A DNA stretch of 5,644 nucleotides from a virus (taxonomy: Duplodnaviria; Heunggongvirae; Uroviricota; Caudoviricetes): positions 1 through 5,644 of the IMG/VR virus record IMGVR_UViG_2684622552_000005; one strand, given 5' to 3'. Under the pieces are notes generated by a model, which searched no databases, was not told where the DNA came from, and saw only the letters and a program-made list of their open reading frames with translations. A program made the translations under genes and the position numbers. This document shows positions 1 to 5,644 of the stretch, one piece after another; within the stretch, counting starts at the first letter, position 1; the number at the start of each line of letters is the position of its first letter.

Positions 1-568
1 TATCGCGTCCTCAACAATGAGTTTTGTGATGCGGTGCCTGGTGCCTCCAGGTGACGTTAACCAGTTAACAATTAACGCCGGATACAGAGAATCCACCCAT
101 AACACTGTTTTTGGTTTTAACTGTTCCGCGTGCGCTTAGCCGCATTCACCGCATCACAAAATTCACTTTAAAAAGGGCGGCAGAGCAGTCACGGAGTAAA
201 ACTGATACCGCCAAACGTCACCAGAAAATTGATAACAGAGGGCGTTGCAGCGGGGTTGTCACTTAAGCGTATGGTCAACCTGACAACCCGGTGTCCTCAA
301 CGGGGGAAGGAATAACCCCGCCATACTTACCGCCGCGCCATTTCGCGGATTGCCACAACCGGAAGCGCACGGTCGACGAAAATTTAACGACAGGCTATCT
401 ATGAACCAGCTACCTCGCCGTGCGCTTTCGCGTTATGGTCTGACTTTTCAGGGAAATATCCTTTCAGTAAACTGTCAGTGCCGGATGCTCACCCGTGTCC
501 GGCGCACGCACTCCACCTCACCCGTGGAGAACTCCTTAATTACCAACCTTAGCTTCGTTGGTTAGCTA

Positions 569-1288: not shown

Positions 1289-1325
1289 TACCCATAGGTA
1301 TTTAAAAAGTAAATACCCATGGGTA
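1289..1325. promoter_or_regulatory. Putative OL: two 12-bp palindromic operator sites (TACCCATAGGTA at 1289-1300; perfect palindrome TACCCATGGGTA at 1314-1325), likely overlapping a leftward promoter
   Basis: Seen in sequence: two sites of the form TACC-N4-GGTA with centres 25 bp apart in the 185-bp gap between the repressor gene and the leftward small-gene operon. The same motif family recurs in the repressor/ydaS divergent region. Possible minus-strand -35 TTTACT / -10 TATCCT overlapping the sites (weak call). Confidence 0.5.
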
Positions 1326-1367
1326 ACTTTTTGCGATGTCTTAACTGGTGACTAGTTGTTTGGTGAG

Positions 1368-1787
1368 CTATGATGCGTTTTGTGCTTTCTTTTTACGGAT
1401 TTCTTCGTAGATCATATTGTAATACTGTTTTTTCTCTTCAAGAGTTTTTAATAATTTATCCGCTTCACTTTCTGGCAGTTCGTCTAAGAGATCTAAAAAA
1501 ATACGTTGTCGTGGCGTTAGAACCCTTGTTTCATAACTGGAGGCTGTGTTCGTTGATGATGAAACGATACCATCCATCCATCCCCGGGGTAACCCAAAGG
1601 ACTCTTCGATAATCTCCACCATATCATCAGCGATCCGTTTTTTTCCCTTTTTCCCCTCTGGGTACAACATTCTTGATACATAAGAAGGCTCGCGCCCGAT
1701 CTTTCTGGCCACGTTAACCGCTTTACCATCGCATTTCTCATCACGAATTTTGATGAGTTGCTGTCGTCTAAATTCATATTTGTCCAT
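1368..1787 (-). CDS. Prophage immunity repressor, HTH DNA-binding protein (CI / RacR-like functional analogue; no LexA-like peptidase domain)
   Basis: 139-aa ATG-initiated ORF. N-terminal segment (KAVNVARKIGREPSYVSRMLYPEGKKGKKRI) looks like a Cro/CI-type helix-turn-helix; the C-terminal half is charged and helical (likely dimerisation). Sits divergent from a Cro-like gene and between two operator clusters, the position of a lambdoid repressor. Confidence 0.75.
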   Translation of the reverse strand: MDKYEFRRQQLIKIRDEKCDGKAVNVARKIGREPSYVSRMLYPEGKKGKKRIADDMVEIIEESFGLPRGWMDGIVSSSTNTASSYETRVLTPRQRIFLDLLDELPESEADKLLKTLEEKKQYYNMIYEEIRKKKAQNAS

Positions 1788-1807
1788 AGGTAAATAATAG
1801 ATGCGAT

Positions 1808-1862
1808 TACCGCAAGGTAAACAACCTATGGGTATTGACTTTTGTTTACCTGTGGGTATTCT
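1808..1862. promoter_or_regulatory. Putative OR/PR: three operator-like sites (TACCGCAAGGTA 1808-1819; AACCTATGGGTA 1823-1834; TACCTGTGGGTA 1847-1858) overlapping a rightward sigma70-like promoter (-35 TTGACT 1835-1840, 16-bp spacer, -10 TATTCT 1857-1862)
   Basis: Seen in sequence. The sites share the TACC-N4-GGTA pattern with the OL sites. The promoter hexamers are positioned to drive ydaS (AAGGAG Shine-Dalgarno at 1877-1882, ATG at 1888). The three-site arrangement resembles lambda OR1-3. Confidence 0.5.
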
Positions 1863-1887
1863 TTGCTGTGTTTACTAAGGAGTAGCT

Positions 1888-2169
1888 ATGGAAGAATTAA
1901 GAATATTTCTCAATTCTCTTTCGTCAGATGAACAGCGTATGTTTGCATGCGAGTGTGGTACCAGCATCGGTTATCTAAGAAAGGCATTGAGTAAAGGTCA
2001 AGTGTTAGGGGCATCGTTATGTGTCCTTATTGAGCGAGCCAGTAATGGTGAAGTTACACGTCAGCAACTAAGGCCTTTTGATTGGATGAATATTTGGCCC
2101 GAGCTGGAAGATACCAAAACGTTAACACAACCACTTTCTAGGAGCTTGATTCATGAAAATCAAGCATGA
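1888..2169 (+). CDS. ydaS: YdaS-family Cro-like HTH regulator (93 aa)
   Basis: ATG with AAGGAG Shine-Dalgarno; divergent from the repressor. C-terminal motif IERASNGEVTRQQLRPFDW matches, from memory, the conserved IERAT.GEV...LRPD..W segment of Rac YdaS-family proteins. Its 3' end overlaps the start of the next gene by 17 nt. Confidence 0.7.
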   Translation: MEELRIFLNSLSSDEQRMFACECGTSIGYLRKALSKGQVLGASLCVLIERASNGEVTRQQLRPFDWMNIWPELEDTKTLTQPLSRSLIHENQA

Positions 2170-2578
2170 ACACATCCGCATGGCGATGAATGCCTGGGCG
2201 CATCCGGACGGTGAAAAAGTTCCGGCAGCTGAAATAACCAGGGCTTATTTTGAACTGGGTATGACGTTCCCAGAACTGTATGACGACAGCCATCCGGAAG
2301 CCCTGGCTCGCAATACCCAGAAAATTTTCCGCTGGGTAGAGAAAGACACCCCTGATGCAGTTGAAAAAATTCAGGCGTTGTTACCAGCGATCGAAAAGGC
2401 AATGCCACCTTTGCTGGTGGCCAGAATGCGCAGCCACAGTTCAGCTTATTTTCGGGAGCTGGTGGAGACGCGGGAGCGACTGGTGAGAGATGCTGATGAT
2501 TTTGTCGCAGTGGCAATCGCCGGTTTCAATCAGATGAACCGTGGTGGCCCGGCAGGAAATGCTGTGGCAGTGCATTGA
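2153..2578 (+). CDS. ydaT: YdaT-family protein (141 aa), CII-like regulator / reported toxic component of the Rac ydaS-ydaT module
   Basis: Starts MKIKHEHI, as I recall for E. coli Rac YdaT. AGGAG Shine-Dalgarno 8 nt upstream. Overlaps the ydaS stop, indicating co-transcription. Family assignment is from memory and positional context, not a search. Confidence 0.7.
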   Translation: MKIKHEHIRMAMNAWAHPDGEKVPAAEITRAYFELGMTFPELYDDSHPEALARNTQKIFRWVEKDTPDAVEKIQALLPAIEKAMPPLLVARMRSHSSAYFRELVETRERLVRDADDFVAVAIAGFNQMNRGGPAGNAVAVH

Positions 2579-2649
2579 GTGATAATAGCCATATCGAATC
2601 GCTTCCGGCAACTCGTGAGTAAAAAGATTCGGTATCAGAAGAGGTGAGT

Positions 2650-3720
2650 ATGGCTAACGCCTGGCTCAGATTATGGCATGACATGCCAAATGACCCTAAG
2701 TGGCGAACAATTGCCAGGGTGTCAGGGCAGCCAATTGCAACAGTGATGGCAGTGTATATCCACCTCCTGGTGAGCGCGTCACGAAATGTCACGCGAGGTC
2801 ACATTGATGTCACGACAGAAGATTTGGCAAGTGCGCTCGACGTGACAGAAGAGGTAATTGATTCAATTTTGCAGACGATGCAGGGGCGGGTACTTGATGG
2901 TGATTTAATCACTGGATGGGAAAAACGCCAGGTGCTTAAAGAGGACAACGGTAATATTTCGCAAACCGCAAAATCTCCTGCAGAGCGCAAGAGGGCGCAG
3001 CGAGAGAGGGAAAGAAAGCGGGAACAAAATGGCGATTGTCACGGCGCGTCACGAAATGTCACGCACATGTCACGACGAGTCACGACAGATAAAGATACAG
3101 ATAAAGATACAGATCAAGAAGATCAAAACACTATGGTCCATGGCGTAAAAAACGCCACGAACCAGGCAGGGGATGTTCAGACCGTCAATCCTGGTCAGCC
3201 AGCAGGCACGACACCGGAAGCCGATTCAGCGTATGCGCTGAAAGCCGATTCGGGCGCTGTGCAGCAGGTGATGACCCAAAGGCCGGAACAATCACACCAA
3301 CTGCAGCAGCCTGAAGCCGATTCCGCCATTCAGCGGGAAGCCGATCGGGTAGTCCCGGAAAACACCGGGCTGTCTGTGGGACGAGTGGATTATCCGGATG
3401 TGTTCGAACAGGTCTGGCGGGAGTACCCGTTGCGTGCCGGAGCAAACCCGAAGAAATCCGCTTTCAGTGCCTGGAAGGCCAGATTACGCGAGGGGGTGCC
3501 ACCAGAGGCCATGCTGGATGGCGTGAGGCGTTACGCAAGATACTTGGCGGCTACCGGGAAAACGGGAACGGAATTTGTTCAGCGAGCGACGACGTTTTTT
3601 GGACCGGACCGGAATTTTGAGAACCCCTGGTTGCTCCCGGTAAGCGGCACGAACAACCAGCGTTGTGTGAATCATATTTCTGAACCGGATAACGAAATTC
3701 CGCCGGGCTTCAGGGGGTAA
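2650..3720 (+). CDS. Phage replication initiator-like protein (lambda O-like organisation) with iterons inside the coding sequence
   Basis: The ORF track starts at GTG 2644; ATG 2650 with GAGG 5 nt upstream is the more likely start. The C-terminal region (VFEQVWREYPLRAGANPKKSAFSAWKARL...FVQRATTFFGPDRNFENPW) resembles the conserved C-terminal domain of phage replication proteins. Two clusters of GTCACG repeats and an AT-rich repeat lie within the gene. It occupies the position after cro/cII analogues. Confidence 0.7.
   Translation: MANAWLRLWHDMPNDPKWRTIARVSGQPIATVMAVYIHLLVSASRNVTRGHIDVTTEDLASALDVTEEVIDSILQTMQGRVLDGDLITGWEKRQVLKEDNGNISQTAKSPAERKRAQRERERKREQNGDCHGASRNVTHMSRRVTTDKDTDKDTDQEDQNTMVHGVKNATNQAGDVQTVNPGQPAGTTPEADSAYALKADSGAVQQVMTQRPEQSHQLQQPEADSAIQREADRVVPENTGLSVGRVDYPDVFEQVWREYPLRAGANPKKSAFSAWKARLREGVPPEAMLDGVRRYARYLAATGKTGTEFVQRATTFFGPDRNFENPWLLPVSGTNNQRCVNHISEPDNEIPPGFRG
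2778..2814. repeat. Iteron cluster 1: four copies of GTCAC(G/A) at 10-11 bp spacing (2778, 2788, 2798, 2809)
   Basis: Seen in sequence: cgTCACGaaatgTCACGcgaggTCACAttgatgTCACGacag. Helical-turn periodicity is typical of initiator-binding iterons. Confidence 0.55.
3038..3110. repeat. Iteron cluster 2 (five GTCACG copies at 3038, 3048, 3058, 3069, 3079) followed by a tandem AGATAAAGATAC x2 AT-rich repeat (3087-3110): putative prophage replication origin
   Basis: Seen in sequence. The first 21 bp of this cluster (gcgcgtcacgaaatgtcacgc) are identical to the start of cluster 1, about 270 bp upstream. An iteron array plus adjacent A+T-rich tract inside the initiator gene mirrors ori-lambda inside gene O. 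Confidence 0.55.
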
Positions 3721-4372: not shown

Positions 4373-4413
4373 ATGGGTGTGCCACATGGATTTAAAACTT
4401 ATTGAGATATGAC

Positions 4414-5439
4414 ATGGATACTTTTCATAATATTTTGCTTGAGCACATAGACAGCCTTTTAAAAGAGAGACTTGATTTATCTGGTGACGCTGATATCGAA
4501 AAAGAAATTAATAACCTAATTCCCAAAATAGCCATTGTCGTTAAAAAATCTCTTATTGGCTCGGCCAATGCAATGCTTAGAGAACATCGTTCTCTTTGTG
4601 ATGAATTTGTTGAGAGAAATATTTCAAGATGGGCAGAGGCTTTTGATTTGCTCGAAACACTTATAGTGATATGCACGGAGTCCGGTGAAGAGTTCAATCG
4701 TTCTTATAGACCACAAGCTGCCTCTGAAGAGGATGTGGTTTTTGATTTAGTCGTTCGGCATCACGCAAGAGCTTGCCACATCGCCAACGAAATTTTGTGT
4801 CTCTTAAAGAATGGATTTGCAGATGCTGCCCAAGCGAGATGGCGAGCACTTCATGAGGTAGCGGCCACAGCTATGTTTATAGCAAAGCATGGAAAAGAGT
4901 GTGCTGAGCGCTTTTACTACCATGAAGTGGTTGATTCATATACTGGAATGTTGGAACACAAAAAGTACGAGCACCGGTTAGAAGCAAAAGGTCCAACTAT
5001 TGAAGAAATAGCTGAGTGTAAAGTTCAATTTGATCTATTAATAAAAAAATACGGCAAAAAATATGCAGATAATTATGGGTGGGCATCTTATATTTTCCCT
5101 AACCATAATAAAGTGGGGTTTGGAGCTATTGAGAAAGATGTTCAGTTAGAACACATGCGCCCTTATTATAAGTGGGCGAGTCAGAATGTACACACCGGTT
5201 CCAAGGCAATGAGAAATAGGCTTGGTCTCTGTGAAACTGGTGATGATATATTATTGGTCGGGCAAAGTGATTCAGGAATGGCTGATCCAGCCCATGCTAC
5301 TGCTATTAGTTTGATGCAGATTACTGTGACACTTTTATTCTTAAAACCAACCATTGATCATGCCGTCATTTCAAAAATAATACAGGATTATTCTGATGAG
5401 ATTGGAAATGTATTTCTTAAAATTGATAAGGGTAATTAA
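4414..5439 (+). CDS. AT-rich cargo ORF of unknown function (about 341 aa from ATG 4414; the track start at 4402 is a TTG); candidate accessory / anti-phage protein
   Basis: Long uninterrupted ORF whose base composition is visibly more A+T-rich than the flanking prophage genes. It has its own upstream noncoding region. No transmembrane stretch, P-loop or other recognisable catalytic motif was seen by eye. One R-x6-H segment (RHHARACH, about 4756-4779) is noted only as a weak HEPN-like hint. It lies between the replication module and an IS element, a typical prophage moron/defence-island position. Confidence 0.75.
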   Translation: MDTFHNILLEHIDSLLKERLDLSGDADIEKEINNLIPKIAIVVKKSLIGSANAMLREHRSLCDEFVERNISRWAEAFDLLETLIVICTESGEEFNRSYRPQAASEEDVVFDLVVRHHARACHIANEILCLLKNGFADAAQARWRALHEVAATAMFIAKHGKECAERFYYHEVVDSYTGMLEHKKYEHRLEAKGPTIEEIAECKVQFDLLIKKYGKKYADNYGWASYIFPNHNKVGFGAIEKDVQLEHMRPYYKWASQNVHTGSKAMRNRLGLCETGDDILLVGQSDSGMADPAHATAISLMQITVTLLFLKPTIDHAVISKIIQDYSDEIGNVFLKIDKGN

Positions 5440-5518
5440 AAATTGGAAAAGTGATAGTATATTCTTGTTTTTTTTACTGGTAATTAAATGTTTTTAAAGT
5501 TACTAGTTCACACCTATC

Positions 5519-5644
5519 TGAATCGCCACGGGTTTAACAGACACCTCAGAGTCATTTAAGATGGCTTAAAGAGAGGTGCCCATGAGCGGTAAGCGTTATC
5601 CCGAAGAGTTTAAAACTGAAGCAGTCAAACAGGTTGTTGCTCAA
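5519..5644 (+). mobile_element. Left end of an IS3-family insertion sequence (putative left inverted repeat starting TGAATCGCCACGGGTTT at 5519), truncated by the window edge
   Basis: Begins with TG and is GC-rich, like IS3-family terminal repeats as I recall them. It lies 63 bp upstream of an OrfA-like start preceded by AGAGAGGTG, similar to the spacing and Shine-Dalgarno context I recall for IS3. Exact boundary is uncertain; the right end is not in the window. Confidence 0.55.
5582..5644 (+). CDS. IS3-family transposase OrfA, N-terminal fragment (continues beyond the window)
   Basis: Hand translation MSGKRYPEEFKTEAVKQVVAQ matches the characteristic N-terminus of IS3-family OrfA proteins (K-R-x-[YF]-x-x-E-F-K-x-E-A-V). 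ATG at 5582 with a GAGAGGTG Shine-Dalgarno upstream. Confidence 0.65.
   Translation, partial: MSGKRYPEEFKTEAVKQVVAQ

Follow-up and report, generated by a model that had tools for sequence, protein, structure and literature searches.

A ydaS–ydaT-type gene pair as the probable early operon of a lambdoid prophage lysis/lysogeny switch

An overlapping pair of small genes of the ydaS/ydaT type lies in a 5,644-nucleotide stretch of viral DNA (hereafter the window) and raises the question of whether it forms a toxic or host-takeover module, as the headline of a first-pass annotation had proposed, a toxin-antitoxin system, or part of a decision between lysis and lysogeny. Very probably, the pair is the early operon transcribed rightward from the immunity region of a lambdoid prophage, with a Cro analogue and the CII analogue YdaT as its products (Table 1). 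The genes follow the order repressor, Cro analogue, ydaT and replication-initiator (O-type) gene, with the Cro analogue gene first in the PR operon and divergent from the repressor gene. Genetic, biochemical and structural work on CP-933P and Rac has already characterised modules of this type, and the finding is real but ordinary.

Table 1. Coordinates of annotated and predicted features of the immunity region in the window.
Feature	Position	Strand	Details
DicF	175–226		PL side
Putative PL promoter	1285–1313	−	−35 TTTACT 1313→1308, 17-nt spacer, −10 TATCCT 1290→1285
OL-type operators	1288–1301 ATACCCATAGGTAT; 1313–1326 ATACCCATGGGTAA	.	14-bp palindromes downstream of repressor gene; predicted binding
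Prophage repressor (CI analogue)	1368–1787	−	139 aa; PHROG 5736, E = 6e-70
PRM-type promoter	1794–1821	−	−35 TTTACC, −10 TATTAT; promoter scan
OR-type operators	1807–1820 TTACCGCAAGGTAA; 1822–1835; 1846–1859	.	pattern search, repeats; predicted binding
PR-type promoter	1835–1862	+	−35 TTGACT, 16-nt spacer, −10 TATTCT; promoter scan, 9/12
Cro analogue gene	1888–2169	+	93 aa, ATG, AAGGAG 5 nt upstream
Predicted extended −10 of PRE-type promoter	2119–2127	−	TGtTAACGT; hexamer at 2124–2119
YdaT operator (YdaT-box, OM)	2146–2163	.	TTGATTCATGAAAATCAA; ydaT ATG (2153) inside 6-nt spacer
ydaT (CII analogue)	2153–2578	+	141 aa, ATG, AGGAG at 2140–2144

Both open reading frames were present and share 17 nt (2153–2169), as first annotated, and profile and BLASTP homology for both products sustained the assignment to a ydaS/ydaT-type pair, with the Cro analogue as a divergent YdaS-type protein. 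Of the two, only YdaT passed its Pfam cutoff. The Cro analogue matched Pfam YdaS_toxin (PF15943) over residues 35–66 only (25.8 bits, E = 9e-6), below the cutoff of 30, as did the Cro of phage mEp043 (26.0, sub-threshold), whereas Rac YdaS (107.7) and the CP-933P-type YdaS (46.2) passed. A PHROG 35 match (‘transcriptional repressor’, E = 5e-23) was obtained as well, along with a BLASTP alignment to phage Evi's YdaS of the CP-933P type (36% identical across 78 aa, E = 5e-17) and a phmmer match to the PDB entries 8C7K/8CO2 ‘antirepressor Cro’ (E = 1e-10); a literature search on these codes returned chemistry papers only, and the entries were identified as CP-933P-type YdaS via phage Evi and published cloning primers. 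Identity to mEp043 Cro reached 73%, and to K-12 YdaS 24.5% globally, with the local BLASTP match to the latter confined to residues 40–66 (15/28 identical), which agrees with the earlier remark that the N-terminal half differs from the K-12 protein. Residues ~74–93 make up a tail whose codons belong to the joint region. Taken together, the product appears to be a divergent Cro/YdaS-type helix-turn-helix relative, rather than a profile-confirmed YdaS member, with predicted operator binding.

YdaT scored 39.6 bits against Pfam YdaT_toxin (PF06254; cutoff 21), which places it in the family, and its earlier description as CII-like was borne out by a match to PHROG 163 ‘CII-like transcriptional activator’ (E = 7e-46) and by 85% full-length identity to CP-933P YdaT (PDB 8BT1). 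A deposited crystal structure exists for a protein two residues apart (PDB 3C4R, 139/141 identical, full length), so that the term ‘diverged pair’ fits the Cro analogue and does not fit YdaT. Over the DNA-binding domain, identity to CP-933P YdaT was ~94% (six differences in residues 1–96); the α2–α3 loop is the same in the two proteins, and the recognition helix differs at positions 62–63 only, with R53 and R60 kept (roles of R53/R60, loop and helix residues from the CP-933P YdaT structure, PMC9986795). R60 (CP-933P numbering) was invariant across the YdaT alignment (A2). The tetramerisation core (positions 103, 110, 111, 114, 117, 118 and 121) reads L, L, V, A, F, V, A here compared to I, L, V, V, F, V, A in CP-933P. 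Near-identity to the solved structures predicts a fold with an N-terminal POU-like helix-turn-helix domain and a long C-terminal tetramerisation helix. No Pfam match of YdaT to the lambda CII family was found at E ≤ 0.1, and CP-933P YdaT is the published functional equivalent of lambda CII; by analogy, the protein encoded here would be CII-like in function while standing outside the lambda CII sequence family. NCBIfam held no family for the Cro analogue or YdaT.

The repressor control proposed for the pair has support in an operator-flanked, sigma-70-like PR divergent from the repressor gene, from which such control may be predicted. The palindrome ATACCCAYRGGTAT (≤3 mismatches) occurs at the second and third OR-type sites around PR, both of which overlap the promoter, and at the two OL-type sites; across the pattern search there were nine strand-matches (1.06 expected), a number reached in none of 200 shuffles. 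The OR region could be aligned with the mEp043 cI-cro intergenic region (79% mean column identity), with three palindromes common to both. Judged by its two domains, the repressor is chimeric, combining an mEp043-CI-type N-terminal DNA-binding domain (residues 1–86, 65% identical) with a C-terminal domain of the DicA/PaaR2/Tritos-CI type; no Pfam match was found, the S24 peptidase domain is missing, and a search of solved structures returned nothing significant. As the PRM −10 finishes 7 nt ahead of the first base of the repressor start codon (1787), a leaderless repressor mRNA is predicted, like that shown experimentally for paaR2 in CP-933P (PMC8630535). The putative PL went unlisted by the promoter scan because its 8/12 consensus matches fall under the threshold, and its layout relative to the OL operators, as read from the sequence, is that of PR relative to its own; it would drive ydfA-ydfB-ydfC-dicF leftward. 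Two terminators called by the scan (1325–1289 and 1814–1802) were rejected, being the operator palindromes themselves. The cell-division-inhibiting roles described in this prophage are those of DicF and dicB, on the PL side, opposite ydaS-ydaT; dicB lies just past the window on that side in near-identical genomes.

The published YdaT operator (TTGATT-N6-AATCAA), footprinted in CP-933P (PMC9986795) and Rac (PMC11879457), had one exact match in the window, with no exact match in any of 200 shuffles. As in Rac and CP-933P, this box spans the ydaT start codon. Weaker matches elsewhere in the window were at chance level, and no second site (≤3 mismatches) was found in the repressor-cro intergenic region (1788–1887). 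Leftward of the box by 20–22 nt, a TAnnnT hexamer was present in 10/10 junction contexts, compared to at most one at each of the other offsets from 0 to 99 nt, and a −10-like hexamer is likewise present in the dicC/ydfX-type junction. This hexamer, a new point of the analysis, points to an operator-proximal, YdaT-activated promoter of the PRE type, with transcription predicted to start near 2112; relative to that start the box would be centred at about −42, a geometry resembling that of class II or lambda CII activation. The predicted −10 matches three of six consensus positions and carries a TG extension; a −35 could not be recognised, and the PRE transcript shows no evident Shine-Dalgarno sequence ahead of the repressor gene.

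In the proposed switch, the 139-aa repressor of a lysogen would bind TACC-N4-GGTA-type palindromes at OR (1807–1859) and OL (1288–1326) and thereby silence PR and PL, and would be made from PRM on an mRNA that is probably leaderless. Upon infection or derepression, PR would transcribe the ydaS-like gene and ydaT; the Cro analogue, acting on the same operators, would lower PRM and then PR, and a YdaT tetramer would bind the box across its own start codon, switching on a leftward and otherwise silent PRE-type promoter at the hexamer. The resulting transcript would run antisense through the Cro analogue gene into the repressor gene, pushing towards lysogeny. We infer all binding and regulation at this locus from homologues, with DNA binding, PRE activation and bistability shown for CP-933P or Rac proteins only, including operator binding and activation of a leftward PRE-type promoter by YdaT in these two prophages.

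A comparison of junctions bears directly on whether the two genes are partners. Alleles of ydaT 97–99% identical to that of the window follow Cro proteins 18–30% identical to the Cro of the window; near-identical alleles occur behind at least five Cro proteins (each <31% identical to it), and these Cro proteins belong to different Pfam families. One junction (L103) joins a Rac-type YdaS with a window-type YdaT, and another (L132) a Rac-type YdaT with a dicC-type cro. The mosaic joint lies at the YdaT operator and coincides with a step in GC content from ~41% to 52%. Across junctions, cro and ydaT overlap by 17 nt, by 4 nt or not at all, with the frame ATT CAT GAA AAT CAA GCA TGA giving 17 nt and the frame GAT TCA TGA giving 4 nt; the 17-nt overlap of the window thus appears to follow simply from the reading frame that its cro gene has on entering the conserved box. 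Reassortment at the operator, together with the varying overlap, is a clean argument for interchangeable regulators and against a cognate, interacting toxin-antitoxin pair.

Under a type II toxin-antitoxin arrangement, YdaT (or YdaS) would be a toxin neutralised by its overlapping partner and the overlap would provide translational coupling, an idea encouraged by the small, overlapping and co-transcribed genes, by Pfam and RefSeq names that still say ‘toxin’ and by two 2017 papers reporting toxicity when Rac YdaS and YdaT are expressed. The labels ‘toxin YdaT family’ and ‘YdaS_toxin’, from which the idea of a toxic module arose, mislead. YdaT binds a defined operator as a tetramer through its helix-turn-helix domain (PMC9986795), and the sequences and solved homologues of the two products show DNA-binding proteins of the helix-turn-helix kind, not a toxin fold. 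Near-identical ydaT alleles recombined behind dissimilar Cro proteins, and overlaps of varying length, speak against a cognate, co-inherited pair. Jobling's letter argues against the arrangement for Rac, and a PADLOC search covering the pair, the repressor, DUF977 and DUF5677 matched no model for defence or toxin-antitoxin systems. The toxin-antitoxin reading is thus largely refuted and is highly improbable here, and the choice between it and a lysogeny-decision module, which the first-pass annotation had left open, is largely answered by the literature, to which the reassortment seen here adds. Rfam matches within 1888–2578 were at chance level only.

Somewhat less remote, and still improbable, is a role in host takeover, whereby derepressed YdaT, and possibly the Cro analogue, would reprogramme or kill the host via promoters like that of rcsA. 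In Rac, YdaT makes cells filament and die and occupies the rcsA promoter, and the Rac and CP-933P YdaT proteins recognise each other's boxes (PMC11879457); since the DNA-binding domain of the window allele is essentially that of CP-933P YdaT, it could plausibly bind the same host sites off target. For CP-933P YdaT, however, which is the nearest of the characterised homologues, no toxicity was detected, and a phage-internal role is indicated by the box on its own start codon, the nearby conserved −10 and the cII position of the gene in isolated phages. In addition, DicF is on the PL operon here, as is dicB in near-identical genomes. The ‘toxic or host-takeover’ headline is unsupported, and toxicity on over-expression is a possible side effect, by analogy with that reported for Rac YdaT via the rcsA promoter (PMC11879457).

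At least 80% of window 1300–2700 was recovered from 813 complete E. coli genomes out of 5,426, with the best matches listed 99.5–99.6% identical, and the same ydaT allele occurs in the isolated phages Tritos, Evi, vB_Eco 640R1 and 689R5, two of which have it annotated as cII. A genome-wide search for more divergent YdaT loci returned 15 loci, nearly all from Escherichia/Shigella, and one further context type. In near-identical E. coli genomes the region is a Qin-like prophage at the Qin site; this prophage is probably defective, and the switch may for that reason no longer decide anything. It could accordingly be asked whether the genes are inert remnants, intact by chance and devoid of current regulatory function, particularly as K-12 retains only a truncated ydfX (96 aa) and an IS3-family element adjoins the right end of the window. 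Against this, both open reading frames are intact with good ribosome-binding sites, the operator is perfect, and neither the breadth of conservation among complete genomes nor the occurrence of the allele in isolated phages suits a remnant, an explanation that is very unlikely.

The lysis/lysogeny switch proposed here most resembles CP-933P ydaS-ydaT (Jurenas et al. 2021, PMC8630535; Prolic-Kalinsek et al. 2023, PMC9986795), which has the same order of repressor, divergent Cro analogue and YdaT, an identical operator (TTGATTCATGAAAATCAA) likewise on the ydaT start codon, and a leaderless repressor mRNA as predicted for the window. The operators of CP-933P are GTTTAGTAA-type repeats compared to the ATACCCAYRGGTAT type here, giving a different immunity specificity, and its repressor differs in the DNA-binding domain; its paaA2-parE2 toxin-antitoxin genes behind the repressor have no counterpart in the window, and its genes overlap by 4 nt rather than 17 nt. 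Rac racR-ydaS-ydaT of K-12 (PMC5700373, PMC5700377, PMC11879457) shares the layout, and its YdaT-box (ATGATTCATGAAAATCAA) is one base off that of the window and likewise on the ydaT ATG. Rac YdaT has the same length, architecture and MKIKHEHI N-terminus with an identity of only 33–34%, Rac YdaS matches the Cro analogue over 28 residues only, RacR is unrelated to the window repressor, and the Rac genes are separated by a 22-nt gap instead of overlapping. Toxicity mediated by rcsA and YdaT sites in the racR-ydaS intergenic region have been reported for Rac only.

The proposed logic is also that of lambda cI-cro-cII, in which a repressor acts with OR/OL, Cro competes for both, and a tetrameric activator with its site at the cro/cII junction starts leftward transcription that runs antisense to cro. 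Neither window protein matches the lambda Cro or CII Pfam families, the window repressor is without an S24 autocleavage domain, and the POU-like fold of YdaT, of 222 symmetry, is paired with an inverted-repeat site, in contrast to the direct repeat of lambda CII. Phage mEp043 shares the cI-cro part, as given above, but its CI carries a LexA-type S24 peptidase domain, its Cro is without the C-terminal tail of roughly 17 residues, and a gene annotated as activator protein cII stands where the window has YdaT. Qin dicA-dicC-ydfX of K-12 occupies the same chromosomal site and has the same PL operon (ydfABC-dicF-dicB) as the near-identical genomes of the window; a 17-nt overlap is found between dicC and ydfX too, and ydfX represents what is left of a YdaT-family gene (37% identical across 95 aa), truncated in K-12 relative to 160 aa in the intact allele and with a degenerate box. 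DicA/DicC represent a different immunity type, DicC being of the P22_Cro family.

Downstream of ydaT, 10 different contexts were observed. Near the 3' end of the gene, a scan listed a promoter-like site pointing leftward (2611→2582) together with a weak hairpin resembling a terminator (2421–2404), and an oop-like antisense RNA opposite this end was considered and rejected, as the site is not conserved; the fold of the candidate was not unusual (z = −1.4).

The conserved hexamer is a specific prediction of a YdaT-activated promoter site and may refine the published Rac model. In Rac the corresponding hexamer is TATGAT, at 20 nt from the Rac box. An extension of the prediction to the whole family, Rac included, is tentative, with chances slightly short of even: PRE would be operator-proximal throughout, the box and the −10 would form the conserved joint, and co-resident prophages could cross-activate repressor synthesis. 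Counting against a proximal PRE, the Rac study put YdaT-dependent activation at the predicted PracR4 promoter, ~190 bp from the box, and the CP-933P structure paper described the operator as ‘downstream from’ PRE933P (PMC9986795). The CP-933P PRE reporter fragment, as defined by its primer sequences, extends from 18 nt before the box to ~85 nt past it and is compatible with a box-proximal promoter. If the family-wide arrangement is true, any cro module could be plugged before any ydaT allele, and the prophages cross-activating one another would include that of the window, Rac and CP-933P. The −10 hexamer 20–22 nt leftward of the box often carries a TG extension.

The ydaS-like and ydaT genes very probably form the Cro/CII part of a lysis/lysogeny switch of lambdoid type, in which the 93-aa ydaS-like protein would act in the manner of Cro and YdaT in the manner of CII. 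Their coordinates and 17-nt overlap (2153–2169) were exact in the first-pass annotation, and both genes are preceded by good ribosome-binding sites (AAGGAG, 5 nt before the ATG of the ydaS-like gene, and AGGAG at 2140–2144, 8 nt before the ydaT ATG). By its sequence matches the 141-aa protein is YdaT, and CII-like, as had been proposed, with scores above the cutoff for Pfam YdaT_toxin (39.6 bits; cutoff, 21), a match to PHROG 163 ‘CII-like transcriptional activator’ (E = 7e-46) and 139 of 141 residues shared with PDB 3C4R, an uncharacterised prophage protein from E. coli O6. Identity to K-12 Rac YdaT is 33–34% over the full length and to CP-933P YdaT (PDB 8BT1) 85.1%, with six of the 21 differences from the latter in residues 1–96. 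The α2–α3 loop (35–49) is identical in these two proteins, the recognition helix (50–63) differs only at 62–63, retaining R53 and R60, and the other differences occur from residue 98 onward, mostly in or around the C-terminal tetramerisation helix.

The ydaS-like protein fell below the cutoff for Pfam YdaS_toxin (25.8 bits; cutoff, 30), matching over residues 35–66 only, and its BLASTP alignment to K-12 YdaS was limited to residues 40–66, so the earlier remark that its N-terminal half is unlike the K-12 protein was right. A longer match (residues 4–75, E = 1e-10) was to PDB 8C7K/8CO2, ‘antirepressor Cro’, which can be identified as CP-933P-type YdaS because a phage Evi protein 98.6% identical to it adjoins PaaR2 (MQKKE...), PaaA2 and ParE2, and the ends of the Evi gene match the published ydaS cloning primers. 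CP-933P-type YdaS is 36% identical to the 93-aa protein (E = 5e-17), and the closest phage relative is the cro-position protein of lambdoid phage mEp043 (73% identity), matches that point to a divergent Cro/YdaS-type helix-turn-helix protein.

Predicted features of the switch region and the leftward operon
Feature	Position	Strand	Details
STnc100-like match, sub-threshold	23–163	−	38.8 vs 47; adjoins DicF
DicF sRNA	175–226	−	76.7 bits vs gathering score 48
Putative PL, sub-threshold	1313–1285	−	TTTACT, 17-nt spacer, TATCCT; PR-like layout; flanked by left palindrome pair
Repressor ORF	1368–1787	−	139 aa; divergent from the pair, 100 bp to its left
PRM promoter	1821–1794	−	promoter scan; divergent from PR
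PR promoter	1835–1862	rightward	TTGACT, 16-nt spacer, TATTCT; promoter scan
ydaS-like ORF (Cro analogue)	1888–2169	+	93 aa
−10-like element	2127→2119	−	TGtTAACGT
ydaT ORF	2153–2578	+	141 aa

Direct control of the pair by the repressor, claimed previously, is well supported at the sequence level by the operators, by PR and by an alignment to mEp043, from which we infer the binding of the repressor itself. The promoter scan returned exactly the sites expected of a lambda-type switch. The palindrome ATACCCAYRGGTAT occurs at 1822–1835 and 1846–1859, overlapping PR, and again at 1288–1301 and 1313–1326, a count reached in 0 of 200 shuffles, and a third, weaker palindrome (TTACCGCAAGGTAA; 1807–1820) lies over PRM. 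The promoter flanked by the left pair is taken to be PL for ydfABC-dicF. The mEp043 cI-cro intergenic region aligns with the whole OR region of the window and has the same three palindromes. The PRM −10 (TATTAT, 1799→1794, minus strand) stops exactly 7 nt short of the A (1787) in the repressor start codon, a geometry shared with mEp043, and a leaderless repressor mRNA is therefore predicted; leaderless mRNA has been shown for the CP-933P repressor gene paaR2 and is known for lambda cI (PMC8630535). The repressor appears to be chimeric: residues 1–86 share 65% identity with mEp043 CI over its N-terminal, DNA-binding domain, and residues ~89–139 resemble DicA, phage Tritos CI and PaaR2 at their C-termini. 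Unlike mEp043 CI (228 aa), it has no S24 peptidase domain and, lacking this autocleavage domain, would not be induced via RecA-stimulated self-cleavage. The combination of mEp043-like operators and Cro with an mEp043-type/DicA-PaaR2-type repressor without an S24 peptidase domain would constitute an uncharacterised immunity specificity.

YdaT of CP-933P footprints on a TTGATT-N6-AATCAA repeat at the ydaS/ydaT junction (PMC9986795) and that of Rac on ATGATTCATGAAAATCAA, whose spacer contains the ydaT ATG; each recognises the site of the other (PMC11879457). The window has a single perfect YdaT box, TTGATTCATGAAAATCAA at 2146–2163, with the ydaT ATG (2153) in its spacer; none occurred in 200 shuffles. 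The N-terminus MKIKHEHI (2153–2181) is kept even between YdaT alleles 34% identical; its first four codons coincide with the operator's right half, and conservation at the DNA level extends over the next 12–18 nt, thus part of the protein conservation may be a DNA-level constraint.

When the junctions of Rac, Qin, four isolated phages and viral contigs were aligned, similarity was lost at once to the left of the box, with the box and the ydaT 5′ end conserved. Alleles of ydaT 97–99% identical to that of the window stand behind Cro proteins only 18–30% identical to its own (Pfam P22_Cro, sub-threshold HTH_17 and YdaS); one locus (L103) has a Rac-type YdaS with a window-type YdaT, and another (L132) a dicC-type cro followed by a Rac-type YdaT. 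GC content is about 41% over the repressor-cro module and steps up to about 52% in ydaT. Mosaic joining recurs at the ydaT 3′ end, which is followed by 10 different contexts. The cro/ydaT overlap is 17 nt, 4 nt or absent across these junctions, due solely to the frame in which cro enters the box: ...ATT CAT GAA AAT CAA GCA TGA gives 17 nt and the protein ending ‘...IHENQ(A/T)’ (the window, phage 640R1, and loci L100 and L103) and ...GAT TCA TGA gives 4 nt, with K-12 dicC/ydfX likewise at 17 nt. The overlap thus appears to follow from the joint itself and is not a sign of coupled partners; the last ~20 residues of the Cro analogue come from joint DNA and are missing from mEp043 Cro. The toxin-antitoxin option entertained previously lacks two defining features, cognate pairing of the two proteins and a toxin fold in either of them, and is contradicted by published experiments on the closest characterised homologue, CP-933P YdaT, and by Jobling’s argument for Rac. 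A primary toxic or host-takeover role, also suggested, is not supported: Rac YdaT is toxic on over-expression (PMC11879457), but toxicity was not seen in published work on CP-933P YdaT, and the presence of DicF on the PL operon of the window, and of dicB on that of near-identical genomes, also argues against it.

The Cro/CII type of module is already known in genetic, biochemical and structural detail, with the YdaT allele essentially that of PDB 3C4R, and the one element a specialist might find useful is a predicted PRE close to the box. Among junction contexts clustered at under 55% identity (n = 10), all had a minus-strand TAnnnT hexamer 20–22 nt past the box, half with a TGn extension, and any other offset from 0 to 99 had at most one occurrence; the dicC/ydfX type shows such a hexamer as well (TACGAT at offset 20). 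The count in the ten contexts is far beyond the chance expectation (about 3/64 per context), even with some shared ancestry among contexts; the linkers of the window and L090 look related. Transcription is predicted to start near 2112, which would put the box centre near −42, in a class-II-like/lambda-CII-like geometry that lacks a −35 element. In CP-933P, the primers of the PRE reporter delimit a fragment that begins 18 nt ahead of the box and continues for about 85 nt beyond it, and is therefore compatible with a box-proximal YdaT-activated promoter. The Rac study placed activation at a promoter predicted some 190 bp from the box, but the constructs take in the proximal region and so do not discriminate between the two (PMC11879457). 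The truncated YdaT-family gene ydfX of K-12 Qin (L003 15347–15637; 96 aa, 37% identical to window YdaT), 160 aa when intact in other genomes (L138–L142), has a degenerate box (TTGAACAATGAAAATCAC) and a TACGAT hexamer at the same offset.

Positions 1300–2700 are 99.5–99.6% identical to many E. coli chromosomes, and 813 complete genomes out of 5,426 contain at least 80% of this span. There it belongs to a Qin-site prophage with the gene order rspB, int, xis, exo, ydfD, dicB, (dicF), ydfC, ydfB, ydfA, repressor, ydaS-like, ydaT, replisome organiser, DUF977, DUF5677. In RefSeq the first protein is a ‘YdaS family helix-turn-helix protein’ in one genome and, among the other genomes listed, a ‘transcriptional regulator’ or ‘hypothetical protein’; the second is named ‘toxin YdaT family protein’. 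On the putative PL operon, DicF and the STnc100-like match lie downstream of ydfA/B/C. A lambda oop-like RNA was considered for a leftward promoter-like site in the ydaT-O spacer (2582–2611, −) and a weak terminator-like hairpin inside ydaT (2404–2421, −), which occupy the place of oop in lambda, and was rejected, as the site is not shared by the different downstream contexts and the fold is unremarkable. Two GTCACG(A/C) clusters (2778–2815 and 3040–3085, +; roughly 10–11-bp spacing) within the O-like replication-initiator gene are probably origin iterons (nine matches compared to 2.1 expected; nine reached in 0 of 200 shuffles). The DUF5677 gene (4402–5439, +; 345 aa; GC about 36–43%) is placed like a moron, behind the genes for replication and for DUF977 (Ren-like PHROG), and its protein had no PADLOC match. 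The left end of an IS3-family element occupies ~5506–5644, with an ORF from 5581 starting MSGKRYPEEFKTEAVKQVV; none of the complete E. coli genomes collected covered at least 80% of 5400–5644, and insertion at this position behind the DUF5677 gene therefore has no representative among them. Five short contigs (L130, L136, L138, L140 and L141) carry prophage genes of the YdaT family, a few of them almost the same as E. coli alleles, yet belong to MAG deposits labelled Collinsella, Candidatus Nanosynbacter, Bacillota and Veillonella, probably as a result of mis-binning.
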